In this document: in pieces, positions 1 through 60,885 of the stretch
Numbering within the stretch: the stretch's first letter is position 1
How the letters are laid out: each line of letters begins with the position of its first letter
Assembly (NCBI GenBank): GCA_026707815.1
Contig: JAPOWB010000008.1
Span: forward strand, 62,230 to 126,229
Direction: 5' to 3'
Origin: Candidatus Saccharimonadota bacterium
GTDB lineage: Bacteria; Patescibacteriota; Saccharimonadia; Saccharimonadales; VXPC01
Length of the DNA stretch: 64,000 nucleotides
The notes under the pieces: generated by a model
Databases searched by the model: none
Told to the model about the DNA's origin: nothing
What the model saw: the letters and a program-made list of their open reading frames with translations, nothing else
Made by a program: the position numbers and the translations under genes

Positions 1-272
1 TAGAGGAGATTAATTTGATGGTTAGAATTATGTAAATATAGATAAGTTTGAGCCAGTATAGTGGTTTTGCCCACGCCTCTGAGTCCTGGTATGACAATCC
101 ATCTGTTTTTTGTCTTATTTTTTAGAAAATTATCAACATGTGATTCAATCTGTTGTTGTAGCAATCTTTGAGGCAATAAAGTATCACCGCTACCGATTAT
201 ATCTTGAAGTAGTTGAGGAGTAACATTAATTTGTCTTCTCAGATAGTTGAGTATAATAGTTTCCTGATCCAT
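1..272 (-). CDS. AAA_14/DUF4143-family ATPase paralog, N-terminal part; C-terminus lies beyond the window start
   Basis: The minus-strand ORF starts with ATG at 272 and continues off the window edge. Translation is MDQETIILNYL...WIVIPGLRGVGKTTILAQTY (Walker A), the same N-terminal architecture as the ORFs at 3287-4711, 11107-12555 and 39539-41071. Confidence 0.6.
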   Translation of the reverse strand, partial: MDQETIILNYLRRQINVTPQLLQDIIGSGDTLLPQRLLQQQIESHVDNFLKNKTKNRWIVIPGLRGVGKTTILAQTYLYLHNSNHQINLL

Positions 273-480
273 ATCTTTCTTTGGTTAAGGGCATTATACC
301 AATAAGTGGGTATATTAGTCAATTATACTTTACCAATGAATAAGATTAAAAATCTATTATTGGAATTTTGATTCGATCCAAGCATTTGATAGCCCAGCTT
401 CTTTTCTATATCTCGCTCCGCCTGTAGATTTATAGAGTTATAGAGTTATAGATTAGTATGATGCTTATTCAGTGCATATG

Positions 481-507
481 AAACCCCCCCCCTAATGAAA
501 GGGGGTT
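481..507 (-). terminator. Rho-independent terminator downstream of pilin cassette 1
   Basis: Read on the minus strand there is a CCCCC/GGGGG(G4) hairpin followed by a T-run, immediately 3' of the pilin stop at 525. A homologous module follows pilin cassette 4 at 6600-6624. Confidence 0.55.
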
Positions 508-524
508 ATTAGGGTTAGAAGGGG

Positions 525-1210
525 TTAGTTGATATCGTCAACACAATAAGTAACTGAATCTCCTTCAAGCATATAAAAGATGGCTAGACTACTGCTGATA
601 CCAGATGGAGCAATGTCAGTAGCTTTAACCTCCTTAGAAGTTGCTGCTCTTTGGGGAGATGCTGTGCTACTACATTTCGAACCAGTTATGATAAGCAGTT
701 GGTCTGCTTCATTAAAGCCGGTCCAAGTACCTGCTGTAGTAACAGAGGTTTCACCGCCATGGGGGCTTGTAGTTTCGCAATTACTTTGGGAAGTGCTAGC
801 CACTGTATTCACAGTACCACTGCCAACTACTCGACCTTTGCAACCATTTCCACCAACAAATTTAACTATTCCATTTGTTTTAAAATTAGTTCCCTGCATG
901 TATAGAATTTGAGCTGGTTTTATCGAGTGTTGAGCATTTAGTGAAGAAGTGAGCTTTTCTAATCCAGCCGCTCCCACATGATTAACTTCATTAGGATTAT
1001 ATTGAATGGTAGTAGGTACTCGACCTCCAGCATTAGCTAAAGATTGGTCGTACTGAGTTCTAATAAAAGCTCTATCATTATTTCTGCCACTATTCCTCTG
1101 ATTTCTATTCAATGCCGGAACAGCTACAAAAACCACCGCCAAGATCAAGCCAGCAATGGCGAGGACAATCATGACCTCGACGATGGTGAAGCCTGATATC
1201 TTGGGGTTAT
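525..1210 (-). CDS. Type IV pilin-like protein, cassette 1. It has no start codon in its present orientation; its 5' end is the left inverted repeat
   Basis: It encodes ...HNPKIS|GFTIVEVMIVLAIAGLILAVVF..., i.e. a class-III prepilin cleavage site (G|F, Glu at +5) and a hydrophobic helix. The C-terminus carries cysteines and the motif LEGDxxxYCxD. The upstream in-frame sequence runs to a TAA with no ATG/GTG/TTG; the ORF track starts at an internal Met (1172). Confidence 0.8.
1132..1210. repeat. Left arm of a 79-bp perfect inverted repeat, within the pilin N-terminal coding sequence
   Basis: The reverse complement of 1132-1210 is identical to 1953-2031 (ATAACCCCAAGATATCAGGCTTCACCATCGTCGAGGTCATGATTGTCCTCGCCATTGCTGGCTTGATCTTGGCGGTGGT). 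An imperfect extension to about 1088 has 5 mismatches in 44. Confidence 0.9.
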
Positions 1211-1952
1211 GGGAGGCAAGATATTCTAGAATATCTAAATTATTAATGTATAATGCTAAAAATTGAATTTAACCCTTGGCAGTGAATATATTATTAATTC
1301 AATAAATTCTTATTGATTTTAGTATTATATAAATGCATCTAGCATCTGTAGAGATGAAAGTGTAGCAATACATTGAATAAAATTTATATGCAGATATAGA
1401 AAGTATCTGAAAGGCAAAATGTATAAGTCATTATTCAAGCTATCTAAAAACAATTTTGACGATGTTCAAGCTTAATGCAATCAAGAGTATTTAGTCTGAC
1501 TGCAATAATTCACACGACGACCCCACCCCAGCATCTTATAGCAGAATAATACATTTTGATTATGGCGAGGGAGGGTAAATATTTAAAATGGACAATTAAG
1601 ATTAAAGCTATGAAATATTTAAATATCAAACCCCTTAATTGAATAATTAGATTGCTAGATTAATACAATTTTATCTCTATGTAGTCTAAGTTTTACAGGT
1701 TTCAAATTTTACTTTATAGAGATAGATCCTTTATATAGTTAGTACTGGCTTTATCATGGGAAGTTTCATCTATTGTATTTTTAACTAATATACACCTATT
1801 GACTTATAAGAGCATTTAGATAGACTGGAGGATAACGATATTAAAAAATAAATATAAGAGAAATAGGGGAGTTTATATTATGAATATATCTAAGATATTA
1901 AGGAGTATTTCTTCTTTCATTAATAAGAAGAATACTAATAAAACCAAACTTG
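1211..1952. promoter_or_regulatory. Putative invertible promoter/RBS/leader segment between the inverted repeats
   Basis: This 742-bp AT-rich segment has no ORF of 60 aa or more. It contains the RBS GGGGAG and the ATG (1880) plus 26 leader codons that feed the plus-strand pilin. Inversion would fuse the same leader in frame to cassette 1. Confidence 0.5.
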
Positions 1953-2509
1953 ATAACCCCAAGATATCAGGCTTCACCATCGTCGAGGTCATGATTGTCC
2001 TCGCCATTGCTGGCTTGATCTTGGCGGTGGTCTTTATTGCTGTTCCGGCATTGCAAAGAAATCAGAGGAATAGTGCGAGACGGAATGATGTGGCATATGT
2101 TAAGGCTCAACTTAATCAGTTGGTTGCCAATCGGGGCAACAGAATTCCAGCAGCTAACGAAAATACCCAAATTGCTGGGATTTTGCAAGATGATGAATTG
2201 AATTATTTGGGATCTGCAGATAACACAGGTCGTCCAACTGTTACTCCAAAAGCTCATGGTGATGCTATAGCTATTGGTGATGCTCAAACAATACTGTGGT
2301 ATGCTGCTGAGCCTACTGGGACTACAGCGCTGAATGTCGGAACAGACATTTTGGTTTTAGTGCGTGGAGAAAGTTGTGGGGGTAACAATATTTTGAGCAA
2401 TGCAAATACTGCTAACATTGCGGGTTTAGTTGAAGCCAACAGAAATATAGCCATCATCTATACATTGGAAGAAGATACCAATGTTTACTGCGAAGATACC
2501 ACTCTCTAG
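1880..2509 (+). CDS. Type IV pilin-like protein, cassette 2; the currently expressed orientation, with a 31-aa leader
   Basis: MNISKILRSISSFINKKNTNKTKLDNPKIS|GFTIVEVMIVLAIAGLILAVVFIAVPALQRNQRNS. It has an RBS upstream and a C-terminal ...VYCEDTTL. Confidence 0.85.
   Translation: MNISKILRSISSFINKKNTNKTKLDNPKISGFTIVEVMIVLAIAGLILAVVFIAVPALQRNQRNSARRNDVAYVKAQLNQLVANRGNRIPAANENTQIAGILQDDELNYLGSADNTGRPTVTPKAHGDAIAIGDAQTILWYAAEPTGTTALNVGTDILVLVRGESCGGNNILSNANTANIAGLVEANRNIAIIYTLEEDTNVYCEDTTL
1953..2031. repeat. Right arm of the 79-bp perfect inverted repeat
   Basis: Identical to the reverse complement of 1132-1210; it encodes NPKISGFTIVEVMIVLAIAGLILAVV. Confidence 0.9.
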
Positions 2510-2533
2510 CAACGCCTAACAGAAAGTTAAGAA

Positions 2534-3253
2534 TTGACTGCTATGAAAAAAATAAATTCAAAAGGCTTCACCATCGTCGAGGTCATGATTGTCCTCGCCA
2601 TCGCTGGCTTGATCTTGGCGGTGGTTTTTGTAGCTGTGCCTGCACTGCAAAGGAATCAGAGAAATAGTGCGAGACGGAATGATGTGGCTTATCTGAAGAC
2701 TGCCTTTACTACAACTGTTAGTAATTTGGGCAACCAGATTCCCTCTGCTTCGCAGTTTGGAAGTGCTTTAAAATCTGATGAAATGAATTATATCAGTAGT
2801 ATTACCACCAATCTTGTAAGCACAGTTGCTTTACCGAGTGCGGCTGCAATAAACGCTCAGAATATATGTGAAGCGGCTGGATTGTTTTACAATGCCCATG
2901 CACCTCCCAATGCTAATAAATGCAGCAGTGCTGATGGTGGTAATGCATTTGCCCAAGCTTCAGCTACTCAAGTTTGCGCTGGTCTGAATGGCAATTTAGC
3001 TGGAACAAACTGCTCGAATATAGAGGTGCTTTATTATATGCCGTCTACAACTGCTTCAGTACAAAGAACACTGGCAGATACTGGTAATTCAGCAATGATT
3101 GTCACAAAAGCCCAGTGCGGTGGATTAGTTCACTCATTAACTATAGATACAGATACTGGATCTAGTAATGTGAATCTTCCCGCCTATGCTCAACAATCAG
3201 CTATATTCTTTAGATTAGAGGGAGATGATAACGTTTATTGCGAGAACATCTAA
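2534..3253 (+). CDS. Type IV pilin-like protein, cassette 3; it has its own short leader and ATG
   Basis: MTAMKKINSK|GFTIVEVMIVLAIAGLILAVVFVAVPALQRNQRNSARRNDVAYL. The N-terminal 120 nt are about 90% identical to cassette 2, and the C-terminal motif is EGDDNVYCENI. Confidence 0.85.
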   Translation: MTAMKKINSKGFTIVEVMIVLAIAGLILAVVFVAVPALQRNQRNSARRNDVAYLKTAFTTTVSNLGNQIPSASQFGSALKSDEMNYISSITTNLVSTVALPSAAAINAQNICEAAGLFYNAHAPPNANKCSSADGGNAFAQASATQVCAGLNGNLAGTNCSNIEVLYYMPSTTASVQRTLADTGNSAMIVTKAQCGGLVHSLTIDTDTGSSNVNLPAYAQQSAIFFRLEGDDNVYCENI

Positions 3254-3286
3254 TCTCAATCAGCTGCATAGCTCCCATTGATTTAT

Positions 3287-4711
3287 TTAGATTAAAAGAA
3301 AATACTTCAAGGGTATGAATAAACAGTTATTGTCTATTTGCAGGGGCGTATTGGAAAAAGTGATTGCCCAGTTGCAATCAGTATTCTGTAAAGTATATTC
3401 CATTTGTGAGCCACCTTTCTGCCCTAATCCAAATTCGACAGCCAATTTATGACCATTATTAACCTGTAGAATAAAATCTGTCTGTCTGTCTTTGCCATAA
3501 GTTAAATTACCTTCATAAATAGATATGAAGTGCTTGTAAAAATGTAGCCCGGCAATATCTTCCAGCAACAATCCTTGGCGCATGCTCTTAGTCCGCTCAC
3601 TGGCAATACCATGGTAAAAATTTCTAATAACTGGAGACATAAATAAATACTTAGCTGGATTACGATTATTCACGACTGTGTTCCCTTGAGAAGATATCTT
3701 GATTAATAGTTCTGTTTGATTTAAGGCATCAAGGAAACTGAATATTTGATTGCGACTGCAAGCCAAAATTCGGCTTAGCTTTTCAACGCTGATAATATCA
3801 TTGCTATCTGCTAGGATCGACATCAAGTTATTGATGGCTGTCAAGGAACTAGCTTCAAATTGTTTAATCTTTCTTAAATCGGTATTGATAACTTTATCAA
3901 GCATAGCTTTAATATTATGATTCATACGAACAATATTATTTTGACTATAATTAAGAGGTAAAGTCCCGCTTTCTAAATAAGTTGTCAAATGATTCAATGA
4001 ATATTTAATCCAAGCTGTCTGCATCGTTGAATCTAGCTTTTTCAACCGATTATAAGAATCTTTTGGATTTTGGGCATAATAAATGGCTTGAAATATTTTT
4101 TGTCCTAAATCAGCATCAATAGGCTGGTTATGATAGATGTTTTGGAATTCAACGAAGCTTAAAGGATATAATTTCTCTATGTAAGCTCTTCGACCGGCAA
4201 TATCGGCATCCATTTGCAGATGAACAGCTGATGAGCCTGTGCAGAAGAAAAATATATGAGAGGTATTATCATAAAAAGTCTTCAAAGTTCTTGCCCATTT
4301 GGGATCAATTTGGACTTCATCTATGAATATGAAAGTTGGAATTTTTAGAGCTTCCAAATCTTCACCTAAAATTTTTTCATAGGCCTTTAAAACTTCATAC
4401 AGATTAGAATTTAAATTATTTACCACTTCTTCCAAAGAAAAGTGCAGGAGATTAATTTTGGCTTGGCTATTAGCTAACTTTAAATAAATCTGAGCCATTA
4501 AAGTGCTTTTTCCTACACCCCTCAAACCGGGCATAACCAACCATTTAACTGAATTGCTGACAGATTTCAAAAATTGGTTAATATGTTGTTCAACTGTGAC
4601 AACAGCTTTTCTTTCGGGCAGAGGTTTATTATTGAAGTCCACTGTTCGCAGAGATAGTAAATCATAAGCTCGATTTAGTCGCCTCTGTAAATAATCTATA
4701 ATATCTATCAT
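3287..4711 (-). CDS. AAA_14/DUF4143-family ATPase (P-loop ATPase with a predicted nuclease-like C-terminal domain)
   Basis: It has a Walker A (PGLRGVGKSTL) and a Walker B (FIFIDEVQ). The stretch TGSSAVHLQMDADIAGRRAYIEKLYPLSFVEF matches the AAA_14 consensus. It is one of five paralogs in the window. Confidence 0.7.
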   Translation of the reverse strand: MIDIIDYLQRRLNRAYDLLSLRTVDFNNKPLPERKAVVTVEQHINQFLKSVSNSVKWLVMPGLRGVGKSTLMAQIYLKLANSQAKINLLHFSLEEVVNNLNSNLYEVLKAYEKILGEDLEALKIPTFIFIDEVQIDPKWARTLKTFYDNTSHIFFFCTGSSAVHLQMDADIAGRRAYIEKLYPLSFVEFQNIYHNQPIDADLGQKIFQAIYYAQNPKDSYNRLKKLDSTMQTAWIKYSLNHLTTYLESGTLPLNYSQNNIVRMNHNIKAMLDKVINTDLRKIKQFEASSLTAINNLMSILADSNDIISVEKLSRILACSRNQIFSFLDALNQTELLIKISSQGNTVVNNRNPAKYLFMSPVIRNFYHGIASERTKSMRQGLLLEDIAGLHFYKHFISIYEGNLTYGKDRQTDFILQVNNGHKLAVEFGLGQKGGSQMEYTLQNTDCNWAITFSNTPLQIDNNCLFIPLKYFLLI

Positions 4712-4851
4712 CTTTGTTAATTTGTTAGAATATTTAATAAATCTAATTTCATACTATATTAGCTCATTCAATTTATCTAGTCAATCAATCCCTATCCAAT
4801 AGAGGAGTATCTTGTAAAATCTCGAATTTCTCGATTATTAATATCCAAATG

Positions 4852-4873
4852 CTAGGATTTAATTTAATCCTAG
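4852..4873. promoter_or_regulatory. Inverted repeat CTAGGATT-N6-AATCCTAG in the divergent intergenic region
   Basis: It has perfect 8-bp arms and sits between the divergently transcribed ATPase (minus) and dprA-like (plus) genes, so it is a candidate operator. Confidence 0.3.
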
Positions 4874-4904
4874 ACATATATTTTTATGTTAATATTTTAA
4901 TAGG

Positions 4905-5807
4905 ATGAATCATAAGCAGAGTTTTGCCATAAATCCACTAGAAGAGGCAATTGCTTACGAAGCTTATATTGCTCTTGAGAAAGATCGCTCTGAACAAAAA
5001 TTAGAACAGCAATTTCAGCTACATAATACTGATAACGAGTTAATTCAAATCCAGGCTAATCAACCTACCATCAGTCAGTTTCTAGATGAGCTACATATTA
5101 GTAGTGATTATCATAAACTAAAACAAGTGATTGCTAAAGAATTAAAGAAAGGAACTGGCTTCTCCATTTGCACCTTTATGAGTTATCACTATCCTCAAAA
5201 GTTGAGAGACAATAAATATCCTTTAAAGTTATTCTACTATCGGGGAGATATAAATCTATTAGATACAAGATGTGTTTCTATTGTTGGCAGCAGACAAGCT
5301 AGCGAAGCTGGTTTGAAAGACACTCAGCAAATCGCTCAATATTTAATAGAAAAGAACTATACGATTATTTCGGGTCTAGCCCAAGGCATAGATACAGTTG
5401 CTTTAACAACTGCTATAAAAACTCATGGGAGAATTATTGGTGTTATTGGCACTCCAATAGATCAATATTACCCCAAAGATAATAAAGATTTACAGGATGA
5501 AATTGGCAGACGACATTTACTCTTAAGCCATGTGCCTTTTTATAAGTATGATAAAGAGCCATTTTCGGCGAGGAGAAATTACTTTCCTCAGAGGAATATT
5601 ATTATGGCTAGCATTAGCCAAGCTACTATTATAGTCGAAGCATCAAATACTAGCGGGACTCTCCATCAAGCTAAAGCAGCCTTAGATCAAGGTCGGCAAT
5701 TATTTATTTTGGATAGATGTTTTAAAACCGCTACTTGGCCAGCTAGATTTGAAAGACAAGGAGCTATTAAAATAAATAATATTGATGACATCAAGGAAAA
5801 TTTCTGA
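4905..5807 (+). CDS. dprA: DprA/Smf-like DNA-processing (Rossmann-fold) protein
   Basis: It has the IVGSRQASEAG...ISGLAQGIDTVALTTAI...IGVIGTPID motifs typical of the DprA/Smf family. Confidence 0.6.
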   Translation: MNHKQSFAINPLEEAIAYEAYIALEKDRSEQKLEQQFQLHNTDNELIQIQANQPTISQFLDELHISSDYHKLKQVIAKELKKGTGFSICTFMSYHYPQKLRDNKYPLKLFYYRGDINLLDTRCVSIVGSRQASEAGLKDTQQIAQYLIEKNYTIISGLAQGIDTVALTTAIKTHGRIIGVIGTPIDQYYPKDNKDLQDEIGRRHLLLSHVPFYKYDKEPFSARRNYFPQRNIIMASISQATIIVEASNTSGTLHQAKAALDQGRQLFILDRCFKTATWPARFERQGAIKINNIDDIKENF

Positions 5808-5981
5808 TTATAAATGGCATCTGATTACAGATAAAGATAATATTAAACACATAACAGATACTGACTGCTTTGGAAAAATGAAGCATCAAATTCCTATGAT
5901 TGGTTTATTTTGGTCAAAAACCGTCCAAATGGAATAATTTACAATTCTTTTTGGGATTAATATATGTTTTGCCAAAAATAA

Positions 5982-6581
5982 GACCATAACCCCAAGATAT
6001 CAGGTTTCACCATTGTCGAGGTCATGATTGTCCTCGCTATTGCTGGGTTAATCTTGGCGGTGGTCTTTATTGCAGTGCCTGCACTAAACAGAAATCAGCG
6101 TAATAGTGCTAGAACAGCAGATAGAAACAATATCAGACAAGCTGTCCTGCAAGTTCAAGCTAATACTGGTGGACGAACAGCCGCCGACCACACCGTAGTT
6201 GGTGGGGCGTTAACAGGACTAGAAGTTGCTCACGTTGGAGATGGGAATGGTTCATATAACAACTCAATCGAAGTAGCTAATGTGAAAGCCTTCACAGTGG
6301 CAGCTCCGCAAATTGATGATGGTGAAATAGAATATATCAGGAGAACCTCTACTGTTACCACGCATACCACCACTGGTACTCCCGGTGATTTCCATTATAA
6401 TGGCTTAGTAATCATTGGGGATGCAAGATGTGCCAAAGATATAATTTCATCTGATGGAAAATTTCCCACTGCTGGTGCTAATATTGGTGGTGGTATTCAG
6501 GGAGCTGCCAATAGAGGCGATATAGTTGTTCTCTATAGGATAGAAGGTGATAATAATATTTATTGTGACGATAATGTCTAA
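5982..6581 (+). CDS. Type IV pilin-like protein, cassette 4. It is a complete pilin body with no start codon, so it is a putative silent cassette
   Basis: The frame opens right after a TAA: DHNPKIS|GFTIVEVMIVLAIAGLILAVVFIAVPALNRNQRNS. Homology to the other cassettes begins exactly at ATAACCCC (5986). There is no ATG/GTG/TTG or RBS upstream. The C-terminus is ...EGDNNIYCDDNV. Confidence 0.75.
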   Translation, partial: DHNPKISGFTIVEVMIVLAIAGLILAVVFIAVPALNRNQRNSARTADRNNIRQAVLQVQANTGGRTAADHTVVGGALTGLEVAHVGDGNGSYNNSIEVANVKAFTVAAPQIDDGEIEYIRRTSTVTTHTTTGTPGDFHYNGLVIIGDARCAKDIISSDGKFPTAGANIGGGIQGAANRGDIVVLYRIEGDNNIYCDDNV

Positions 6582-6599
6582 CCCCCCTCTAGCCCTAAT

Positions 6600-6624
6600 A
6601 ACCCCCTTTAATTAGGGGGTTTTG
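6600..6624 (+). terminator. Rho-independent terminator after cassette 4
   Basis: AACCCCCTTTAATTAGGGGGTTTTG. The 3' flank TAACCCC..CTCTA.CCCTAATAACCCCCTTT.ATTAGGGGG is shared with cassette 1. Confidence 0.6.
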
Positions 6625-6931
6625 TTTAAAAGAAATTATCATGTACCAAAATAAAATAGAAGAAATACACATCAAAAACATTATAGGAAACGTGCAAGTT
6701 GATCCAATTTCACAAGTAATTCTAACCAACCAATTCAACTTAGGCAGAAAGCTGGATCAATTGAGTAAAATGCTTGAACAAAAACTCAGCTAAACTCATT
6801 TTTGGAACTATTAAAATTATCTGTTTTATGGTATAATTATAGATATGAAAGAAGTTTATTTGTTGGTTTGCAAATTTTTAATGAAGTATTATAATTTAAT
6901 AAAGAGTACAATGGCGGGTGGGTGATTTAAA

Positions 6932-7435
6932 ATGCAAAAAGAACTTAAATCTCCCTATCAAGCTATGGATATAGCGGATTGGTTTATCGATCGAGCCAAT
7001 AAGGATTTGACAAATAACAATCCTAAATCAACCGAAAAAGAATATGCTGAATATATTAGCCATTTAAAATTGCAAAAATTACTTTATTTTACTCAAGCAG
7101 CTCACTTAGCTCTTTATGAAAGAGCATTGTTTAAAGACAAAATAGAGGCGTGGGATTATGGTCCTGTTATCCCCAGCGTATATCAACACTTCAAATCTCA
7201 GAGAAGTCGATTCATTAGAAATCCAAAAAGCCTCCAATATAAGAAAATTGATAAAGATGCCCAAGAGTTTTTAGAACAAATATGGCAAATATTTGGCAAA
7301 TTTTCAGCAAGTAAATTAGTGAATTTAACCCACAGTCATGAGCCTTGGAAATCTGCTTGTAAAAAAACAAACAGGATAATCACTCAGGATGCCTTAAAAG
7401 CTTACTACAAGAACATTTTTAGTTTCAAAGACTAA
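6932..7435 (+). CDS. Panacea-domain (DUF4065, SocA-like) protein, a putative antitoxin
   Basis: ADWFIDRA...KLQKLLYFTQAAHLALYERALFKDKIEAWDYGPVIPSVY matches the Panacea consensus (KLqKLLY...AW.yGPV.p.vY). Confidence 0.65.
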   Translation: MQKELKSPYQAMDIADWFIDRANKDLTNNNPKSTEKEYAEYISHLKLQKLLYFTQAAHLALYERALFKDKIEAWDYGPVIPSVYQHFKSQRSRFIRNPKSLQYKKIDKDAQEFLEQIWQIFGKFSASKLVNLTHSHEPWKSACKKTNRIITQDALKAYYKNIFSFKD

Positions 7436-7436
7436 T

Positions 7437-7595
7437 GCCTAAGAAAAAATCAAGACGGATCGGAGTTGATTCGAAGCAAATAGATGAGGGTTATCAATCA
7501 GAGCGAATAGATGCAGGAGAACAAGACTATTTATCCCGCCAAGTAAGGTTTAGCTTGGCTTATGCTGCTAGAAGCACTAGATACGGTATCTAGAA
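7437..7595 (+). CDS. Small basic ORF (52 aa) translationally coupled to the Panacea gene
   Basis: Its ATG overlaps the Panacea stop (tAATGcc). It encodes MPKKKSRRIGVDSKQIDEGYQSERIDAGEQDYLSRQVRFSLAYAARSTRYGI. It is not in the ORF track because it is shorter than 60 aa. Confidence 0.25.
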
Positions 7596-8975
7596 AGTAT
7601 CTAGGGGCTTTTGGAAACATTTGTGTTCTAGGTTGGGGCATTTTGAAAGAATGACTAATCAGAAAATCCAAAGTATTCCCCACCAAAATGGCTTGAGTAT
7701 TGAGGGAAAAAGTAATCCCACCCATACAAAATTGCAAAATGAATTTACTGAATTCAGCACTTTTGGACATTTTAGAGTTAGCAATAAAAGCAGTAAGCCC
7801 TCTAGGATTTTTGTGGGAATACAGGATGGATTACTCTATTTACTGCTTTTCGATGAAGCTGGTGAAGTGCATCACAAATAATTGGATGGTGTATAATGCT
7901 CCCCAATGAATCAAGCAAATAATCTTGAGCAAAAACTACAGCTCATAAATGACAATCTAACGGAAATTAAGTTCTTGTTACAAAGAATAGCTGTAGCTAC
8001 TGCCGTTGATATGCATATTAATGGAGTTGAGATGGGATATATGAAAGCGGGAGCTAGAAAACAGCAGTCTGAGATTGCCATTTTAGATATTTTGGATACA
8101 CTAAAACAATGCAACTGTCAGAAAAAGAAAGAGAGTTAATAGGAAAACTAGAGAAAATCGAAGCAGACATCCGAGCATTTATCAAGGATGCAGTCAAAAC
8201 GCATGATGCGATATTACCGTCAGAAGTTCATATGAAGTGAGGTCTTGTTAAGGGGCTGACATCCGACGATAAAGTTCTTCGATATCAAATAGATATTGGG
8301 TTGCAGTATATCGATCATTCGCTCAAAATGATAATTTTAGATCAATCTGATCGGCGAAATTTTCACAATAGGCCACCCTCCGTAAGTTGAGGTAATTTAT
8401 AATTGAAGGACATGACAGTCCTCTCATGTTTTATATTTTTTTGGAGGGGTTGCTCCAATCTTTTTCTGAATCTGTCTCCCAGTAAATTCCAATTCTCCAA
8501 GTCGATTTCATATGAAAATCTTGTTGCAGTGGCATCTGCAATTTTGAGTATTGCGCAGATCCATCCCTTAGCACCGCTATTAGCATAGAGGAATTAAAAT
8601 GACTCGAAGCATGCGAAAAAATTCTAAATAGTAATATATTGAACGCCAACCAAGCAGAAAAATTTAAAGAAGTTCTAAGAGAGCGAATGACTCTCAATAA
8701 AATATTGAATAAGGAATCAATTGAGATTAAACAGCTGATACAGAAACAATATGATGATTTAGTGAGGGCAACTAAATAACTCCTATTGATTTAAGGGGCC
8801 TTGTTTTAAAAGTGCAAGTTTGCACCTTTTTTGATGGAGAGAATAGAAACACATATTGCTATATTTATTCTCTTTCTTGTCAAGGGGTCAATAAGATTCA
8901 TTATTTTATATCTGCCAATCGCTGGATTTGAAGTATAATTTGTCATTCAAGCCATGAATAGATATAATTCATAGT

Positions 8976-10196
8976 ATGAATAGATATTCATTAATCTCTC
9001 GCTTAGCTCAGCAAGTAGTTCAAAATCACTTAAAAACAATGCCCGTAGCAGTCATTACAGGAGCTAGACAGACTGGCAAAAGTACTCTTGCCAAAGATTT
9101 AATTAGTCCCTCTCGGCAGTTTTATAGCTTAGATGATTTTGAGATTCTGAGCAATTTCTTGCAATACCCTAGGCAATTATTAAGTAGTGACCTACCAATT
9201 ACTATTGATGAAATACAATTAGCCCCCAGTTTATTAAAAGAGATTAAATTGGCGGTAGATCATCATCGCATCGAAGGGCAATTTTTACTGACTGGCTCAG
9301 CTAATCTGCTGCTAATGAAGGATATATCCGAATCATTGGCTGGTCGAGCCAGCTACATAACTTTATGGCCAACAACTCGGCGGGAGCGACTACAGGTAAA
9401 TCCCCCCAGTCTTTGGCAGGAATTATTGAGCTTAGCGGATAGAGATTGGCTGGCATTTTTTAAAAGCCAAAAATTATATCGGGATGATTGGCGAAAATTA
9501 GTTTTAAGAGGTGGTTTCCCAACCCCAGCTTGGCAGCTCAAAACAAACCCGCAATGTTCTATTTGGTTTGATAGCTATATTAAGACCTACTTGGAGCGTG
9601 ATCTTCGGAATATATCATCGATATCATCTTTACCTGATTTTCGTCGCATAATGCAAATTTTATGTCTGAGAATCGGACAATTATTAAATCAAGCAGAAAT
9701 ATCTAGAATAACTGGCATACCTCAACCAACAATTTGGAGATATATTAACTTATTGGAAATTTCCTATATGTTAATTCGCTTACCCGCTTATACATCCAAT
9801 AAGGGGAAAAGTCTATTAAAAACTCCTAAAATATATTGGGCGGATACGGGTTTAGGCTTGCATATTTCTAAGGGTCAAATCAATGGCTTTCATTTAGAAA
9901 ATTTAATCTTAACTGATTTCATGAGCTGGAATGATGCTTCAACTTTGAATGCAGAGATATTCCATTGGCGAACTACATCAGGTCAAGAAGTGGACTTTGT
10001 TATTGAATATAACGGTAATTTATTGCCAATGGAAATCAAAGCTTCAAATTTACCAACAGCTAAAGATATTAAAAATATTCATGTATTCCAAGAGATGTAT
10101 CCTCAGTCTAGATGCGGAATACTACTACACAGTGGTCAAACTTTAGAGTGGCTTAGTCCAAAAGTTTTAGCTTTGCCATGGTGGTATTTAATTTAA
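8976..10196 (+). CDS. AAA_14/DUF4143-family ATPase (shorter paralog type)
   Basis: It has ITGARQTGKSTL (Walker A) and TIDEIQLAPSLLKEIK...LLTGSANLL...SLAGRASYITLWPTTRRE. Confidence 0.7.
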   Translation: MNRYSLISRLAQQVVQNHLKTMPVAVITGARQTGKSTLAKDLISPSRQFYSLDDFEILSNFLQYPRQLLSSDLPITIDEIQLAPSLLKEIKLAVDHHRIEGQFLLTGSANLLLMKDISESLAGRASYITLWPTTRRERLQVNPPSLWQELLSLADRDWLAFFKSQKLYRDDWRKLVLRGGFPTPAWQLKTNPQCSIWFDSYIKTYLERDLRNISSISSLPDFRRIMQILCLRIGQLLNQAEISRITGIPQPTIWRYINLLEISYMLIRLPAYTSNKGKSLLKTPKIYWADTGLGLHISKGQINGFHLENLILTDFMSWNDASTLNAEIFHWRTTSGQEVDFVIEYNGNLLPMEIKASNLPTAKDIKNIHVFQEMYPQSRCGILLHSGQTLEWLSPKVLALPWWYLI

Positions 10197-10404
10197 ATGA
10201 AGAGATTATCATATGTATAGTTAAGTTTCCAAAACTGGCAGTTAGATTACAAAAAATTCAGAATATATCTAAAGAATCTTATCTCTTTTATTGAGCGAAG
10301 CATTGCCAAGGTTTATCCTCACCTTGATTTGAAACTAAACAAATAAAATGTATATTAGGAAGTGAAGTAATGTTTAGAAAAATAAAACTATAAGTGGAAC
10401 TAAA

Positions 10405-10626
10405 TTGAGGCAGAATCTTGCTGATATTACTCAAGTTGTCGCTAATGACACAGATGTAATTATCACTTATAGAGGTGTTCAAAAACAGGTAATTATGAGT
10501 CTAGACAGATATGAAGATTTGCTAGCTTCATCGAATCCCAAGTATTTAGCAGATATTAAACAGGCTCGTCTTCAAACTAAATCTGGGCAATATTTAAAAT
10601 TTGATGAAGTCTTCGATAATTTGTAG
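10405..10626 (+). CDS. Phd/YefM-family antitoxin
   Basis: It is a 73-aa protein with LADITQVVANDTDVIITYRGVQKQVIMSLDRYEDL (Phd/YefM fold), and it lies immediately upstream of a RelE-like ORF. Confidence 0.6.
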   Translation: MRQNLADITQVVANDTDVIITYRGVQKQVIMSLDRYEDLLASSNPKYLADIKQARLQTKSGQYLKFDEVFDNL

Positions 10627-10890
10627 ATGGCAAAATATCAAGTCATTTTGATCAAGAATACTATTAAAAATTTGGAAAAATTGGATAGAATCATTCTTCA
10701 GCGTATCAAACAAAGATTAGAATATTTCAGAAAGAACAAACCTCTTAGCCAAGCGATTCAACTAACCAAACCAGCAGATGCCCAGTATAGTTGGCGGCTC
10801 GGAGATTATAGAATCTTATTTGATTACAGGAAATCAGATCAAACAATTATTATTTTAAAAATCCAGCACAGAAAAGAAATCTATCGCTAA
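10627..10890 (+). CDS. RelE/ParE-family toxin
   Basis: It is an 87-aa protein with ...WRLGDYRILFDYRKSDQTIIILKIQHRKEIYR (RelE/ParE C-terminal signature). Its start abuts the antitoxin stop. Confidence 0.65.
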   Translation: MAKYQVILIKNTIKNLEKLDRIILQRIKQRLEYFRKNKPLSQAIQLTKPADAQYSWRLGDYRILFDYRKSDQTIIILKIQHRKEIYR

Positions 10891-11106
10891 AATTGATGCA
10901 AATGTGAACTGAATGGGTTTTACACTAGCTCCCATAAATCAAAGCTGCTTATTCATCTAAATGCACCTCACTCCATCATCGTAAGAAAATTTGTTGAATT
11001 AAAATTAGTGGTACACTGAGTAGATATTAACTTACTGTTGTATTCTAAAACACCAAAAGATTATTTCGTTGTTGAATCTTAATACAACAGCATATATAAT
11101 AAAGAT

Positions 11107-12555
11107 ATGGACAGCGAACTATATATTAGACAATATTTAAACCAACAACTAGAACATGGACATCAAGCCCTGAGCCTCAAGCTGATTGACTCGCAAAAAT
11201 CAAGACTACTAATCAGAAAACTCCAACGATATATTCAGCAATTTCTTGGTGGCGAAAAACAGGCTGATCGATGGGTTATTATCCCCGGTCTAAGGGGGGT
11301 GGGTAAAACCACCATATTAGCTCAAACTTACATTTGGCTGGAAGCAACGCATAATATTGAAGATATAAATTTAATCTATATTTCCTTGGATGAAATCATC
11401 CCGCAACTTAATTCTAATCTAAATCAGGTTATGCAAGTTTACGCTCAAGTATTGGGACACGATTGGATTAATTGTAAAAAACCCACCTTCGTCTTTATTG
11501 ATGAAGTTCAGCTTGATATCAATTGGGCGCAAACTTTGAAAGTGATATATGATAAAAACCCTAATCTATTTTTTATTTGCAGCGGCTCATCAGCTACATA
11601 TTTACAACTGAACGCTGATGTTGCGGGACGAAGAGCTATCATTGAAAGGCTTTATCCTTTGGCTTTTACTGAATATCAGTTATTAGCCTATGACAAAGAT
11701 AGCTCCCCTCATTTTAAAGATGAACTGATGACTATTCTTTATTATTCAGATTCAGCTGACATAGTTTTTAAAAAGCTAAAACAAAAACGACTGCTACTTG
11801 ATCGAGCTTGGGCAAAGTATGACAGTAATAATCTTGATCACTACTTAACAATGGGAACTATGCCTTTTGCTCTGCATCAAACTAATAGAGAGAAAACTTA
11901 CATAGCCTTAAGAGGTATGATTGATCAGGTAATTAATAATGATATACAGGCTGTTAAGAACTTTAATCAAGGTAGCCTAGCTGTCATCAGAAGATTGATG
12001 TTTTTATTAGCTGATTCCGGTGATGTTGTTAGCTTAGAAACATTGGGCAAGGTATTGGGGGTAGATAAAAAGCAAATTTGGGAAATGCTAGATACCTTAC
12101 TTAAAACTGAATTATTAATAAAAGTTAATGCTTATGGCAATCATTATACTGCAACCCGCAAACCAGCTCGCTATCATTTTATGAGTCCAGCTATCCGATT
12201 GACTTTAGCTAGCAGTATCAGTAATCGCAACCTGACGATAGCTAGAAGAGGACGATTATTGGAAGATATAGTCAGTTTGTATTATTATCAAAACTTTGCT
12301 ATTAATCATAAAGCTGATTTAACTTATCCTTACAGTGTTAATAACCAGAAAAACTGTGATTTCATTTTAAAGATACTCAATAGCCATAATATAGCTTTAG
12401 AATTTAGTCTTGGTAAAAAGGACATTAAACAATTGGTTGCCACCATGAAGACAATCGATTGTCGTTATGGGTTGATGTTTTCAGATTCTAATCTGAAACT
12501 GATCAAAGATCAGAATATTATTAAGATTCCCATACATTACTTCTTTTTGTCTTAG
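11107..12555 (+). CDS. AAA_14/DUF4143-family ATPase paralog
   Basis: It has IIPGLRGVGKTTILAQTY and FVFIDEVQLDINWAQTLK...CSGSSATYLQLNADVAGRRAIIERLYPLAFTEY. Confidence 0.7.
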   Translation: MDSELYIRQYLNQQLEHGHQALSLKLIDSQKSRLLIRKLQRYIQQFLGGEKQADRWVIIPGLRGVGKTTILAQTYIWLEATHNIEDINLIYISLDEIIPQLNSNLNQVMQVYAQVLGHDWINCKKPTFVFIDEVQLDINWAQTLKVIYDKNPNLFFICSGSSATYLQLNADVAGRRAIIERLYPLAFTEYQLLAYDKDSSPHFKDELMTILYYSDSADIVFKKLKQKRLLLDRAWAKYDSNNLDHYLTMGTMPFALHQTNREKTYIALRGMIDQVINNDIQAVKNFNQGSLAVIRRLMFLLADSGDVVSLETLGKVLGVDKKQIWEMLDTLLKTELLIKVNAYGNHYTATRKPARYHFMSPAIRLTLASSISNRNLTIARRGRLLEDIVSLYYYQNFAINHKADLTYPYSVNNQKNCDFILKILNSHNIALEFSLGKKDIKQLVATMKTIDCRYGLMFSDSNLKLIKDQNIIKIPIHYFFLS

Positions 12556-12559
12556 GATT

Positions 12560-12738
12560 TCATAACCCCAAGATATCCGGCTTCACCATTGTCAAGATCA
12601 TGATTGTTTTGGTGGTTGCTGGCTTGATCCTAGCGGTAGTCTTTATTGCTGTTACGGCTCTGCAGAGGAATCAGAGGAATGGTGCTAGGCAGAATGATGT
12701 GGCATATCTAAAAGCTCAATGTGACACTGTCTTTTAAT
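12560..12738 (+). pseudogene. Truncated type IV pilin cassette 5 (N-terminal ~57 codons only, no start codon, E+5 replaced by K)
   Basis: HNPKIS|GFTIVKIMIVLVVAGLILAVVFIAVTALQRNQRNGARQNDVAYLKAQCDTVF*. Homology starts at the same ATAACCCC boundary (12563). It lies 10 bp after the ATPase stop. Confidence 0.7.
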
Positions 12739-12873
12739 GCCATAAATTCGGAAGATCTTAATTAGTCTAATCAGGCTGCTGCTACCCCCCCCCCCTTTTT
12801 TTTAAAAAAAAATGGGAGGTTTTGATTTAAGAAAAAGAACTTAGAATCCCTAAGAGATATATCATATATACAC

Positions 12874-13944
12874 CTAGTGCCTGAACTTAAACAATAAGTG
12901 TCTCAATAAAGTATTTTTCTCTAAACGAGTTAAAATCCAAAAGAATAAATAATGAAGTTTTTTAATACTTAAAGTATAAGTTGGTAAATAATCATAACGT
13001 GTTCGGGTAAATTTTGATTTAAAGATGGTCAGGCCATAGAAATTATGTTTACTGGTAGCTTTGGGTGGAGCTACGCCCCATAGATTATAAACAGATAGAC
13101 CCTGTTTGAGAGCATCTGAGATAGCTTGCTTTTGCAATAAATAGGAAGCCCCCACAGTTTGTCCCCTAGTTGAAGATCCGCCATATAAATAGCTTCTCTC
13201 CCCCTCTAGATCAATCATCACTGCTGAAGCCAAAGCTTCGGAGTTGTCCTCCTCATGCACCAAATAAAGATGCAACTTATTGGCTTTAAAAAACTCTAAG
13301 GCTTGGATTTTAATAAAGCTTAAGGGCTCTTGAACAAATTTTTGGCGATGTTGAGTTAATTGATGAATCTTCAAAAAAGATTCTATACCACTTAAACTAT
13401 TATCAACAGTTACTGATAGATTATTATCTTCGGCTTGTCTAATTTCATATCTTAGTTTGGCGTATCTTTTACCTCTAAATAAAGATTCCTCACTCAAATC
13501 GGTTAAATCCAACTTTAAAGTGCTAGGTGTAGTTAGATTAATTAGGCTTAATCTCAATTTAAACTTAGTCATCAAATCCACATTGTTGGCAGTATTCATT
13601 AAGCAACTGGCCAAATTAATAAAAATAGCTGAAGTCTCTGAAGCTAAAGACTTTAATCTTTCGATTAATGATCTGAAGAGAGCTTCGGGTGGTGAATCGT
13701 CCGAGAAATTGACGAAGACTTTCAAGAAGCGTCCCCGTTTGGCGGGAGTATTAATAACTAAAATTAAAGCCTTTGGTTTTTGATTTTCATAAATCCCCAG
13801 CCTAAAAATCTCAAAGCCAGCCTTTTTGAAGGCTTGACCTTGCTCCCAAGCAGTTAATAAACTGCGTTTGTGAATATCTAAGCTTTTATAAGCTGATTGC
13901 CACTGCTGACTTGTAAAATTAGTTTTCCAAACATATTCAGGCAT
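12874..13944 (-). CDS. FemAB-like / GNAT-fold acyltransferase (tentative)
   Basis: It is 356 aa. Length and composition fit a two-lobed FemAB/BioF2-like fold; the assignment comes from overall resemblance only. Confidence 0.3.
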   Translation of the reverse strand: MPEYVWKTNFTSQQWQSAYKSLDIHKRSLLTAWEQGQAFKKAGFEIFRLGIYENQKPKALILVINTPAKRGRFLKVFVNFSDDSPPEALFRSLIERLKSLASETSAIFINLASCLMNTANNVDLMTKFKLRLSLINLTTPSTLKLDLTDLSEESLFRGKRYAKLRYEIRQAEDNNLSVTVDNSLSGIESFLKIHQLTQHRQKFVQEPLSFIKIQALEFFKANKLHLYLVHEEDNSEALASAVMIDLEGERSYLYGGSSTRGQTVGASYLLQKQAISDALKQGLSVYNLWGVAPPKATSKHNFYGLTIFKSKFTRTRYDYLPTYTLSIKKLHYLFFWILTRLEKNTLLRHLLFKFRH

Positions 13945-14073
13945 ATTCTGAAATTATCTGTCAAACCCTCATCTTTATGCAAAACAATCTTAAAATTATC
14001 TAATGTAGTAAATTCAGCTAATTAGAATATAGTAGCTTCAAAATTCTGCTAACATACTAGTTACTAAATACAG

Positions 14074-25786: not shown

Positions 25787-26401
25787 CTACAAATTTTGAT
25801 TCAAAATTTGATTGACTATAGCATCAGCTTTTTGGTTGTATTTGCGAGGAATAAAAGTAATGCTATAGGTTTGCAATTGAGCTAAATAATCAACAACCTC
25901 TTGATAAATCAAACTTAAATCTGGATTGCGAACCTTGTATTGCCCTTGAATCTGCTTGACAATCAACTGACTATCCATAAAAATTTGCAAAGATTCAATT
26001 TGTTTATTCAAAGCTAATTTAACGCCTTGGAGTAAGCCTTGATATTCAGCTTGATTATTAGTGCAATATTTATAAAAAGTTCCTCCAGAATCTAAAACTT
26101 GATCATTTTTATCCAATAAAATGAAACCACAAGCTCCTGGACCTGGATTACCTCTTGAGCCACCATCACAAAATAATTTTGCGGAATCAATGGAGAAATC
26201 CTGATTAAAATATGCCTCAATAATGGGGATTAATAATCTGCCGCCAGTTTGAGTTTCAAGCTCAACTTGATGGTCTTTAAAGTAAATTTTCAAATCCTTA
26301 ATCTCAACTGATGATAGTTTTTGACTGAGATAATTTATGAAATCCCAAGCAGTCTGCCGGTTAGTAAATTCTTTTTTAAATTTATAGCTACCCAAAGACA
26401 T
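25787..26401 (-). CDS. rnhA: Ribonuclease HI with an N-terminal extension
   Basis: CDGGSRGNPGPGACGFILLD...AEYQGLLQGVKLAL (RNase H active-site region). Confidence 0.7.
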   Translation of the reverse strand: MSLGSYKFKKEFTNRQTAWDFINYLSQKLSSVEIKDLKIYFKDHQVELETQTGGRLLIPIIEAYFNQDFSIDSAKLFCDGGSRGNPGPGACGFILLDKNDQVLDSGGTFYKYCTNNQAEYQGLLQGVKLALNKQIESLQIFMDSQLIVKQIQGQYKVRNPDLSLIYQEVVDYLAQLQTYSITFIPRKYNQKADAIVNQILNQNL

Positions 26402-34665: not shown

Positions 34666-35199
34666 TTAAAAACTCCATTTTCTAGTCTTAAACATTCCCA
34701 ACAAATCCATACAGCTTACGCCTAAATCTTTGCAGATATCAGGAATATTTGGTTTATCAGCATTATTACTTGTTTTTTCAGAGGTAATTAAAGCCCAATT
34801 ATGATGAACAGCTAAAGCAATTAGATGTATATCTGCATCATAACCCCTTGTTGATTGAAATTTAACTACATTATCATAAGAGCTAGTAATCTGATTGATA
34901 ATGCCTTCTAATTGAATATTAAACTCTAAAAATATTTGTGAATATTTTTGTGACCAAAGAATTGGTAAATTATATTCACGAGGATAATCTCTTTCAGTTT
35001 TATTTAACCATTCTTTGGGCTTCTTTTTAAAATCAATTCCCAATTCTCCCAAAACTTCTACTGATGAAATTATAAAACCACTTTTAACTAATTCACTGAC
35101 TTGACTGTGAAGATTGGGGAATACCAACTCTGGATATAAACGTCTTGTCAAATCAAGAATAGCATTGGTATCTAGTACGTACCCTTGCCCTTTATTCAT
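34666..35199 (-). CDS. PIN-domain protein (DUF4411-like)
   Basis: It has an N-terminal YVLDTNAILDL acidic PIN motif and is 177 aa. Confidence 0.45.
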   Translation of the reverse strand: MNKGQGYVLDTNAILDLTRRLYPELVFPNLHSQVSELVKSGFIISSVEVLGELGIDFKKKPKEWLNKTERDYPREYNLPILWSQKYSQIFLEFNIQLEGIINQITSSYDNVVKFQSTRGYDADIHLIALAVHHNWALITSEKTSNNADKPNIPDICKDLGVSCMDLLGMFKTRKWSF

Positions 35200-36827: not shown

Positions 36828-37184
36828 TTATTTGTAGGTCTGCCAGCGACGTTTGTCCTCGGTTGGTTTTTTGCCCTTGCTGTATATTTCGATCAGGGTT
36901 AAGTCTCGGTCGTTAGCCAAATAGATGACCCGCAAACTTTTATCTCTTAAGTCAGTCGAATATAGCCGGGCTTTGATGATTCGCGCCTTATCCCTGAGTG
37001 AGCCGTGGAGAATGGTGGCATTTTTGCTACTAAAGAAATTACGACGATAGTCATCGGGCTGATTAGGGTCATTGGCAACCTGATGGGTTTGGATAAATGT
37101 CTTCAAATCTGAGGCAAGGTGCTTGTGTTTTTTATCAAGTGCCTTGATTTCTTTTTTACATTGGTCATCAACGTTATAACTCAT
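36828..37184 (-). CDS. RelE/ParE/HigB-like toxin (tentative)
   Basis: It is 118 aa with ...LRVIYLANDRDLTLIEIYSKGKK at the C-terminus. It overlaps by 11 nt the downstream-strand partner, which encodes an HTH-Panacea protein. Confidence 0.35.
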   Translation of the reverse strand: MSYNVDDQCKKEIKALDKKHKHLASDLKTFIQTHQVANDPNQPDDYRRNFFSSKNATILHGSLRDKARIIKARLYSTDLRDKSLRVIYLANDRDLTLIEIYSKGKKPTEDKRRWQTYK

Positions 37185-54166: not shown

Positions 54167-54169
54167 ATT

Positions 54170-55234: not shown

Positions 55235-55299
55235 AGTCTTTGAGTATTACCCCACCACATTTCTTGCATAAAATTAATTATAAAAAATTGTTTGAATTT

Positions 55300-57141: not shown

Positions 57142-57657
57142 AAATTTCTTGGATAATATTTATGTTTGTTTTGAATAAATTAATACCCTAATTATACTGA
57201 ATTACCCCTAAATTAGCTGTTGTGTTTTGAGGGAATTATGTAGCAGAAGGAATTTACAGAGGGTAATTTATCGTATTTACAATTACATTACATCGGATTT
57301 TAAGGATAAAGTATGACTAAAAAGAAAGAGCCTTTAAAACTAGTTAGCCAAGTTGATGGTAAGCCTTTTATTGAGATTGATTTAGAAAGCAATGTAGCTG
57401 TCTTAAAAGCTCCTCAAATTGAGGCTACTACTTTATATGGGGTTGAGAGGATTTAGAGCTTTTTATAAGCAAGTTGCCAAGTGAGTTAACTGCCATCAAA
57501 AAGATTTTAGATGTCTATAAAGCCGAATGGCTGAAAAAAGCCTTATAAAACAAATTAGATTTTGCAACATCAAGCCTATCCCCAATATTTTTAAGATAAT
57601 TCAGTAGCCAATCAAAAAGCTCCTTTAATAAGGAGCTTTATTGATGCCTATCTAATC

Positions 57658-58800: not shown

Positions 58801-58935
58801 AATTATTATTCTTTCAAAGATTGTTATTTATTGCTTTTATAATATCACATGATGGGAAACTGGCTTTAGCCCCATCTGCTACATAATTCCCTGTTTTGAG
58901 AATATATACCCAGAGTTGAGATTTTGTGAAATAAA

Positions 58936-59991: not shown

Positions 59992-59996
59992 ATCCT

Positions 59997-60881: not shown

Positions 60882-60885
60882 CTCT

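Follow-up and report, generated by a model that had tools for sequence, protein, structure and literature searches.

The window studied here is a 64,000-nucleotide stretch from a metagenome-assembled genome (MAG) of Candidatus Saccharibacteria (TM7) (ENA ERZ23496890, scaffold_50, 160,638 bp; NCBI proteins MCY40889xx), and the subject is a silent type IV pilin cassette, c4, together with the pilin array to which it belongs. The window contains five type IV pilin copies (c1 to c5), all of them within its first 13 kb and none elsewhere. Two further copies without start codons (c-1 and c-2) were found on the minus strand in L001, the 8 kb that adjoin the window on the left on the same scaffold; the window and L001 together make up the 72 kb examined, and the genome that carries them is called the reference. 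We refer to the promoter and leader segment as P, to the constant 5' segment of a pilin copy as K, to the variable domain as V and to the 3' module as T, and a slash marks the leader cleavage site or a junction. Coordinates are collected in Table 1. An assembly artefact was considered and rejected, as the 160,638-bp ENA scaffold and a 160,455-bp NCBI contig hold the same cassette proteins.

Only c2 and c3 have a translatable leader, that is, a start codon and a basic leader before the Gly-Phe (G/F) cleavage site. The segment P upstream of c2 contains a promoter-like site (1799-1826), the motif AGGGGAG (at about 1865-1871), the ATG (1880) and leader codons 1-24. The last approximately 170 nt of P are nearly invariant among three strains, and an Rfam scan of positions 1-14000 (E ≤ 1) returned nothing, leaving P without a structured RNA. 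The c2 leader has 32 residues (MNISKILRSISSFINKKNTNKTKLDNPKISG/F), which is unusually long when compared with 80 related loci, and the leader end contributed by P meets c2 at the junction ...AATAAAACCAAACTTG/ATAACCCC-K. The c3 leader is MKKINSKG/F, and c3 travels with c2 in the strain comparison described below.

The cassette c4 consists of the boundary codon CAT (5985), K4 (5986-6102), a variable domain (6103-6578) and a stop codon (6579-6581). It has no promoter, ribosome-binding site (RBS) or start codon, while its reading frame is otherwise intact, and an in-frame TAA (5979-5981) stands two codons ahead of the boundary codon, as an in-frame stop likewise does in c-1 and c-2. In c1, c4, c5, c-1 and c-2, we found no ATG, GTG or TTG between the nearest upstream in-frame stop and G/F (c1 has 19 in-frame upstream codons, none of them a start). 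PF07963 (N_methyl) matched c1, c2, c3 and c4 with 28-30 bits (cutoff 21.2), the same four copies contain GFTIVEVMIVLAIAGL with the pattern G/F-x-x-x-E and a hydrophobic N-terminal helix, and a Cys pair and a Y..E....C C-terminus are invariant in an alignment of 20 sequences. Full-length open reading frames (ORFs) with the Cys pair and the C-terminus are kept in five copies. An earlier sequence-only reading had described silent but otherwise complete cassettes that serve one expression site and keep the Cys pair and the C-terminal end, and our results agree with it on these points. It had also counted c5 as a member of the repertoire, which does not hold: c5 has the fifth residue changed from Glu to Lys and a stop after 58 codons, and is a dead remnant that is unusable as a cassette. 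The array comprises at least five intact start-less cassettes (c-2, c-1, c1, c4 and whichever copy remains unjoined to P), with c5 as a fossil.

The NCBI proteins for c4 (MCY4088946.1), c1 (MCY4088941.1), c-1 (MCY4088939.1) and c-2 (MCY4088936.1) are each 9 residues longer than a call from the internal Met, and their starts thereby fall at the ATA codon of K-I-S-G. These four MAG proteins could be taken to mean that translation of the silent cassettes begins in situ at a non-canonical start codon, but they come from homology-driven gene calling and carry no evidence of translation. Furthermore, the cassettes have no upstream Shine-Dalgarno sequence, most copies have an in-frame stop two codons ahead of the boundary codon, and the leader so produced would be only M-S before G/F, whereas the starts on record for the 80 related loci imply leaders of mostly 9-12 residues or more. 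Translation from ATA is hardly credible on these grounds, and we rejected it along with translation from the internal Met and coupling to the upstream AAA_14 genes (the last for lack of a start codon). The ATA starts are probably homology-forced annotation artefacts that hide the start-less state, which gives annotators a reason against forcing such starts on genes of this kind.

The cassettes share a sharp 5' boundary. The window has exactly four occurrences of the 16-mer ATAACCCCAAGATATC (1195-1210 on the minus strand; 1953-1968, 5986-6001 and 12562-12577 on the plus strand), each of them 8 codons before the G/F cleavage site of a pilin copy. When c1, c2, c4 and c5 were aligned at the nucleotide level, they were unrelated upstream of this boundary and 80-100% identical for about 120 nt downstream of it. 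The copies c-1 and c-2 have the same boundary, and c3 is homologous to the others only from the G codon onward. The sequence-only reading had proposed this alignment and had noted that the homology of c1, c4 and c5 to the expressed gene begins at one nucleotide, 8 codons before G/F, with unrelated sequence and no ATG, GTG or TTG upstream; the alignment and the codon scan bore this out, the breakpoint being common to c1, c2, c4 and c5 and different in c3. The segment K that starts at the boundary is about 117 nt long and encodes the leader end, the G/F site and the N-terminal helix.

A 3' module shared by c1 and c4, also claimed before, is real: the two copies of T match over 37 nt at 92% (488-524 and 6583-6619). 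In c-2, c-1, c1 and c4, T is laid out as the stop codon, CCCC(C)TCTAACCCTAAT and a terminator hairpin, with about 18 conserved nt after the stop. It is conserved in these four copies and in X (a variable domain of a sister strain, see below), L009 and L010, and its hairpin has compensatory changes in the c4 counterpart of the sister strain (L3_c4) and in L010. The heptamer TAACCCC has 8 of its 11 window occurrences at cassette ends against 3.7 expected, where it is found at the 5' homology boundary, overlapping the stop codon and in the terminator loop; the same pattern was found in another species (L010). The heptamer may act as a recombination signal, or it may be left over from the origin of the cassettes.

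The arrangement of the copies follows a simple rule. The three cassettes left of P all lie on the minus strand and the four right of P all lie on the plus strand, with every 5' end facing P. The inverted segments K1 and K2, within a longer inverted repeat (I1; arms 1054-1210 and 1953-2109, 157 nt, 88% identical, 742 nt apart), bracket P, and a single promoter segment is accordingly flanked by inverted copies of a conserved 5' region, as in an inversion switch. By our own reasoning, this orientation rule is exactly what inversions between any K on the left and any K on the right would leave invariant. The geometry points to DNA inversion; conversion does not require such an orientation.

Sister strains provided further evidence. 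Close relatives were found only through the protein and contig index. A DNA pattern scan for the constant region had no matches in species-representative genomes and one match in JGI metagenomes, an ordinary pilin (L002) that is irrelevant here, and a protein search with the leader and K alone gave short fragments only, the known leader fusions being absent from the matches listed. A protein search with c4, on the other hand, returned P0009, in which the same leader (MNISKILRSISSFINKKNTNKTELDNPKISG) is fused to an unrelated variable domain, X, and P0053, which is the c2 protein called from an internal Met, i.e., a start-less c2. Both proteins are encoded on one 5.9-kb contig from another sample (L003), and the same arrangement was found in shorter contigs (L004-L007) from two further samples. 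The start-less c2 is present on L003, L004 and L005 with V identical. One and the same variable domain is expressed in one strain and silent in another.

To relate the two arrangements, we carried out two inversions in silico on the reference, the first between K of c-1 and K of c2, and the second between K of c-2 and the plus-strand K then right of P. The inverted reference was collinear with L003 (blocks 1-7 in Table 1) in three high-scoring segment pairs that agree in order and strand, one of which spans 2844 nt at 96.9% identity. The L003 arrangement is that of the reference after two K x K inversions, and alternative arrangements of this kind were seen between strains only. A third arrangement is found in a second sister strain on L008/L009 (L009 from GCA_026708245.1), where a syntenic locus with fewer cassettes has co-oriented outer flanks that are 98.6-98.8% identical to the reference. 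There the leader is followed by a further, different variable domain (P0004), and the 1.5-kb AAA_14 block is inverted and lies on the opposite side of P. Across strains, one leader is joined to three variable domains (c2, P0009 and P0004).

The distribution of nucleotide differences indicates where the exchange takes place. Between the reference and L003, V of c2 is identical at 426 of 426 nt, and all 12 differences fall within the 117 nt that follow the boundary. The corresponding 117 nt contain 15 of the 30 differences in c4, where dS is 0.67 in K against 0.08 in V. The K copies that flank P are the most alike within each genome, with 5/117 differences between K1 and K2 of the reference, 0/117 in L009 (in which both K copies share the boundary variant CCCCCAAATATC) and 2/86 in L003, while orthologous K copies differ between strains at 11-15 positions. 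These patterns show that K segregates with the upstream flank rather than with V and is homogenised within genomes, i.e., it undergoes concerted evolution. In contrast, K of the fossil c5 differs at only 1 of 117 positions between the reference and L009, from which we conclude that c5 no longer takes part in the exchange. The sharing of variants among K copies is patchy, K being a mosaic with variable end points, and this is better explained by crossovers or conversion tracts spread along K than by a crossover fixed at the boundary. The claim of the sequence-only reading that the constant N-terminal segment is the recombination substrate is supported by this concerted evolution and by the finding of c2 V both expressed and start-less in different strains.

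If the start-less copies were inert pseudogenes, left by duplication, deletion or insertion in a plastic island and without programmed switching, the decay of c5, the abundance of toxin-antitoxin modules and AAA_14 paralogues around the array, the failure to see c4 expressed and the presence of start-less copies in only about 3 of 80 related species loci would all be expected. Against this, the variable region of c4 has a dN/dS of 0.20 between the reference and its sister strain L003, which means that c4 is under purifying selection and is no decaying pseudogene. In addition, five full-length ORFs retain the Cys pair and the C-terminus, all copies share an identical boundary, c2 is both expressed and silent with V identical, and K is exchanged among intact cassettes but not in the fossil. 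We regard the pseudogene explanation as very improbable.

Taken together, the results make it probable that this is a pilin-switching locus, in which recombination in K moves the single promoter and leader segment by nested inversions, with occasional K-to-T replacement. We propose that recombination within K between oppositely oriented copies would invert the DNA between them and place P in front of another cassette, leaving the formerly expressed gene start-less and untranslatable as a prepilin. A reciprocal junction of such an inversion would read, for example, ...TTGCCTCCC/ATAACCCC-K-V2. Through nested inversions, every cassette could be reached with all 5' ends still facing P; less often, a variable region would be replaced in place between K and T. 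Switching would be expected to occur within populations and to be frequent, and it would presumably change how the type IV pilus attaches to hosts, which antigens it presents or how it serves as a phage receptor. Our best guess is that RecA-type homologous recombination, rather than a dedicated recombinase, would carry it out.

Several observations weigh against this proposal. The switching evidence all comes from comparing strains that are 1-10% diverged. Inversions alone do not predict that L003 has a V4-like domain in place of V1 and X in place of V-1; the replaced regions are each bounded by K and the shared 3' module, and these mismatches point to replacement or conversion events, or simply to a different repertoire. 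We found no defined series of K x K inversions that derives L008/L009 from the reference. Among the related proteins found, c4 was never fused to the leader, and c4 and c5 are in direct orientation to c2, for which reason activating c4 would take either a pair of inversions or else a deletion or conversion. A site-specific process could be indicated by the boundary ATAACCCC, which a different species (L010) shares, or by the repeated presence of TAACCCC at the 3' ends of cassettes. Finally, a dedicated tyrosine recombinase is present in such loci of other lineages (L011, L013 and L014).

Some of these observations bear on a Neisseria-like mechanism, in which non-reciprocal conversion would be the main route and silent donors, themselves unchanged, would overwrite the expressed V between K and the 3' module. 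The V4-like region at the V1 position of L003 (94.7% identical, bounded by K and the 3' module), X at the V-1 position, and the direct-repeat relation of c4 and c5 to c2 all fit such conversion, as does the presence of DprA inside the locus. So does the conservation of c2: its V (2070-2509, compared with 4811-5250 of L003) is 100% identical between strains, whereas the adjacent DNA differs more (P is 90.4% and the AAA_14 block 94.7% identical), a difference of 5-10% that fits imported or converted tracts. This identity suggests that cassettes may recently have been transferred between strains, for example by natural transformation. Conversion as the main route is nevertheless unlikely. The flanking blocks of L003 are rearranged exactly as reciprocal inversions predict, the rule that all 5' ends face P would not be required, and c2 was left start-less with a different upstream flank instead of being overwritten. 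Moreover, no G4 motif, defined as (G3+N1-12)x3 G3+, occurs on either strand of 1-14000, and the silent copies keep the N-terminal constant region that pilS lacks. Of the donor-cassette system envisaged in the sequence-only reading, the silent cassettes and a conversion-like K-to-T replacement stand, while donor-type conversion as the main route is disfavoured by the geometry and by the two K x K inversions.

Others concern the enzyme. A site-specific tyrosine recombinase encoded elsewhere might cut at or near ATAACCCC, with the homology in K being incidental or separately maintained. In line with this, the boundary lies at the same codon, with ATAACCCC conserved, in L010, whose K differs, and TAACCCC is enriched at both ends of the cassettes (8 occurrences out of 11 in the window, against 3.7 expected). 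Tyrosine recombinases of one tight subfamily (55-59% mutual identity, 35% to the nearest XerC/D-like proteins) are encoded on pilin-bearing contigs of other Saccharibacteria and lie inside the pilin locus where this was examined (L011, L013 and L014); we consider this subfamily a candidate dedicated pilin invertase. An Xer-like recombinase, P0210, is also encoded on the same 160-kb scaffold as c4. However, P0210 is a generic Xer-like protein that is only 34% identical to the pilin-locus integrases and has an unrelated context, and nothing in the 72 kb matches it. We found no recombinase domain among the ORFs tested in the locus, the left extension and the window; the 72 kb also lack a homologue of the pilin-locus integrase, and no recombinase adjoins the invertible locus here in the manner of Piv, Rci, HvsR or Xer1. 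A crossover fixed at the boundary also does not predict that K travels with the upstream flank and not with V, or that it is mosaic with variable end points, and the boundary sequences of other lineages are quite different. Site-specific cutting is, in our estimation, somewhat less likely even than conversion as the main route; the absence of a recombinase from the 72 kb, together with the evidence from K, favours general homologous recombination in K for this lineage. A separate candidate, a diversity-generating retroelement, was also rejected: the RVT_3/RNase H ORF at 25787-26401 is RNase HI-like.

Locus switching by inversion has well-known precedents, and in mechanism the locus resembles the Campylobacter fetus sap, Mycoplasma vsa and Moraxella inversion systems, by analogy, more than Neisseria pilS conversion. 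In C. fetus sap, which encodes S-layer proteins, RecA-dependent inversion of a promoter among cassettes with a conserved 5' region proceeds with no dedicated recombinase. The Saccharibacteria locus likewise has one promoter on an invertible segment, opposed homologues with a sharply bounded 5' region and nested inversions that would carry whole cassettes, and here too the lack of a dedicated recombinase is what we infer. Unlike sap, in which each cassette has its own start and only the promoter moves, the mobile segment here also brings an RBS, an ATG and 24 codons of leader, the crossover region falls within coding sequence, and the product is a type IV pilin of another phylum and not an S-layer protein. 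In Mycoplasma pulmonis vsa, inversions join a promoter and amino-terminal coding DNA to a silent gene (PMC4534519). The silent genes of vsa and of M. agalactiae vpma resemble our cassettes in being without a promoter and a 5' end; in those systems, which encode lipoproteins, a dedicated site-specific recombinase acts at short defined sites, whereas in the present pilin locus no recombinase was found and the exchange end points in K vary.

Moraxella bovis and M. lacunata switch between two type IV pilin genes by inversion, with the crossover in the conserved N-terminal coding region (cited in PMC4073114). The shared features are a pilin switch with such a crossover and, in L012 and L077, a two-cassette geometry. 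The Moraxella system has two alleles, inverts the variable parts and has Piv adjacent, unlike the present locus with five or more cassettes, a moving P and no adjacent recombinase. In Neisseria, one expressed pilin gene (pilE) receives variable sequence from silent copies (pilS) that have no promoter or RBS (PMC4534519). Silent copies are common to both systems, and the K-to-T replacements between strains resemble cassette conversion. The N-terminal region is here a shared substrate, flanks rearrange reciprocally and the G4 motif is lacking. In Neisseria, pilS copies have no N-terminal constant region, transfer is segmental and non-reciprocal, and a G4 element is needed. The sequence-only reading had stressed the distinction from pilS, and the retained N-terminal region does set the locus apart; as a principle, this is preceded by Moraxella, M. 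pulmonis vsa and C. fetus sap. In shufflons such as that of R64 PilV, C-terminal segments are swapped by the Rci recombinase at 19-bp sites.

A survey of gene-altering programmed inversions (Milman et al. 2023, PMC9881135) found 'Pilin' enriched among the predicted targets, with an odds ratio of 8.4, and mentions Patescibacteria 0 times. The inversions predicted there resemble the present case in combining a gene with pseudogenes and inverted repeats in coding sequence. Our literature searches turned up no account of pilin switching by recombination in Saccharibacteria or Patescibacteria. The class of mechanism is well known, and the locus extends it to a new phylum without a new principle. 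The Saccharibacteria live as obligate episymbionts, and in the cultivated strain TM7x twitching motility, binding to the host and host competition are all driven by type IV pili (PMC11623550). If the proposed switching is true, swapping of the exposed pilin domain would be a bet-hedging device for bacteria with tiny genomes, with consequences for host range and for immune or phage evasion. A more far-reaching version is possible but rather doubtful: a nested-inversion 'pilin shufflon' that would re-target the host-attachment pilus, here without a dedicated recombinase (through RecA/DprA and the 117-nt coding repeat), with cassettes exchanged by natural transformation using K and T as homology arms, and with a sister clade that recruited a dedicated tyrosine recombinase.

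Comparable loci with other boundary sequences, having silent copies, a sharp boundary in the leader coding region and inverted orientation, were found in other Saccharibacteria (L010, L011/L013, L012, L014, L018 and L077). L011/L013 has six minus-strand copies left of the expression site; the two are related assemblies from one sample, and they were collinear, with no inversion polymorphism captured. Of the 80 species-representative loci, most contain a single pilin gene or two in tandem, whose starts are ordinary and lie mostly 9-12 codons ahead of G/F. Among the 30 multi-copy loci of this set, a tandem pair in which each gene has its own start is the common arrangement. By the start-codon criterion, start-less copies were found in 2 of the 80 loci (one a 39-codon fragment), to which the inverted pair L077 was added by eye. 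The idea that the architecture is widespread in Saccharibacteria is not borne out by this set, in which it is rare (start-less or inverted copies in about 3 of 80 loci). In L077 (Saccharimonadales; 9998-11000), two pilin genes lie tail to tail between perfectly identical inverted K copies, and only one of them is provided with an RBS and an ATG. The pair forms a compact two-allele inverton of the Moraxella type.

Table 1. Coordinates of the pilin array and associated features, with the block order of contig L003 (window positions unless a contig is named)
Feature	Coordinates	Strand	Description
c-2	L001 4912-5462	-	start-less, same 5' boundary
c-1	L001 6363-6943	-	start-less, same 5' boundary
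c1	525-1210	-	silent start-less pilin cassette; K1 = 1094-1210
T1	484-527	-	3' module and terminator of c1
P segment	1211-1952	+	sole promoter/RBS/ATG/leader unit, 742 bp
c2	1880-2509	+	currently expressed prepilin; K2 = 1953-2069
c3	2543-3253	+	second pilin, own short leader, in tandem behind c2
AAA_14 ATPase block	3278-4801	-	carries a 474-aa AAA_14 gene
DprA gene	4905-5807	+	inside the cassette array, directly upstream of c4
c4	5985-6581	+	silent, start-less, intact type IV pilin cassette
T4	6579-6627	+	3' module of c4: stop codon, CCCCCCTCTAGCCCTAAT, terminator hairpin, T-run
c5	12562-12738	+	decayed cassette fragment
TAACCCC at cassettes	521-527, 502-508, 1203-1209	-	
TAACCCC at cassettes	1954-1960, 5987-5993, 6579-6585, 6599-6605, 12563-12569		
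Defence/toxin-antitoxin-like genes	6932-7435, 10405-10890, 34666-36332, 37174-38025; L001 1412-3133		
L003 block 1		-	K
L003 block 2			P, 90.4% identical to window P
L003 block 3			K-X
L003 block 4			75-aa ORF and aspartyl-protease ORF, reverse complement of DNA downstream of c-1
L003 block 5			K and V4-like domain, 94.7% identical to 5984-6607
L003 block 6			3' flank of c1 and 481-aa AAA_14 gene
L003 block 7			K-c2 without start, then c3; 98.7% identical to 1953-3043
Tyrosine recombinase genes	L011 7900-8829; L013 7879-8808; L014 1584-2534		beside multi-cassette pilin loci

The genes around the cassettes are of several kinds. The gene for DprA (DNA recombination-mediator protein A) is absent from the smaller syntenic locus of L008/L009, and its position in the reference suggests a possible link to competence or RecA loading. 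Toxin-antitoxin and defence-like genes are dense around the array: SocA/Panacea (twice), PhdYeFM-ParE, a DUF4411 PIN-like ORF beside an ORF with HTH and M78 peptidase domains, and a NERD-helicase. The array is part of a plastic island. At 52949-61920 on the minus strand, some 40 kb away from the cassettes, is a type IV pilus machinery cluster with a T2SSF platform protein, a T2SSE ATPase, PilM and unannotated neighbours. The minus-strand gene at 19636-22356 encodes a 906-aa ATPase with HerA/FtsK/TraG-TrwB-like domains, possibly a coupling protein of a Patescibacteria type IV secretion or conjugation-like machinery. The other genes of the window include FemAB and housekeeping genes.

Four paralogues of an AAA_14/DUF4143 ATPase are interleaved with the cassettes, at 3287-4711 (minus strand), 8976-10196 and 11107-12555 (both plus strand) of the window and at 6948-8393 (minus strand) of L001. 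Two of them end a few nucleotides before a K boundary: the gene at 11107-12555, with c5 beginning 6 nt past its stop codon, and the L001 gene, which lies before c-1. From these abutting ends, it appears that a unit of ATPase and cassette was duplicated long ago. Just downstream of c5, at 12785-12812, a C11-T8-A9 homopolymer run is followed by GGGAGG and TTTT, and looks like a degenerate cassette terminator module.

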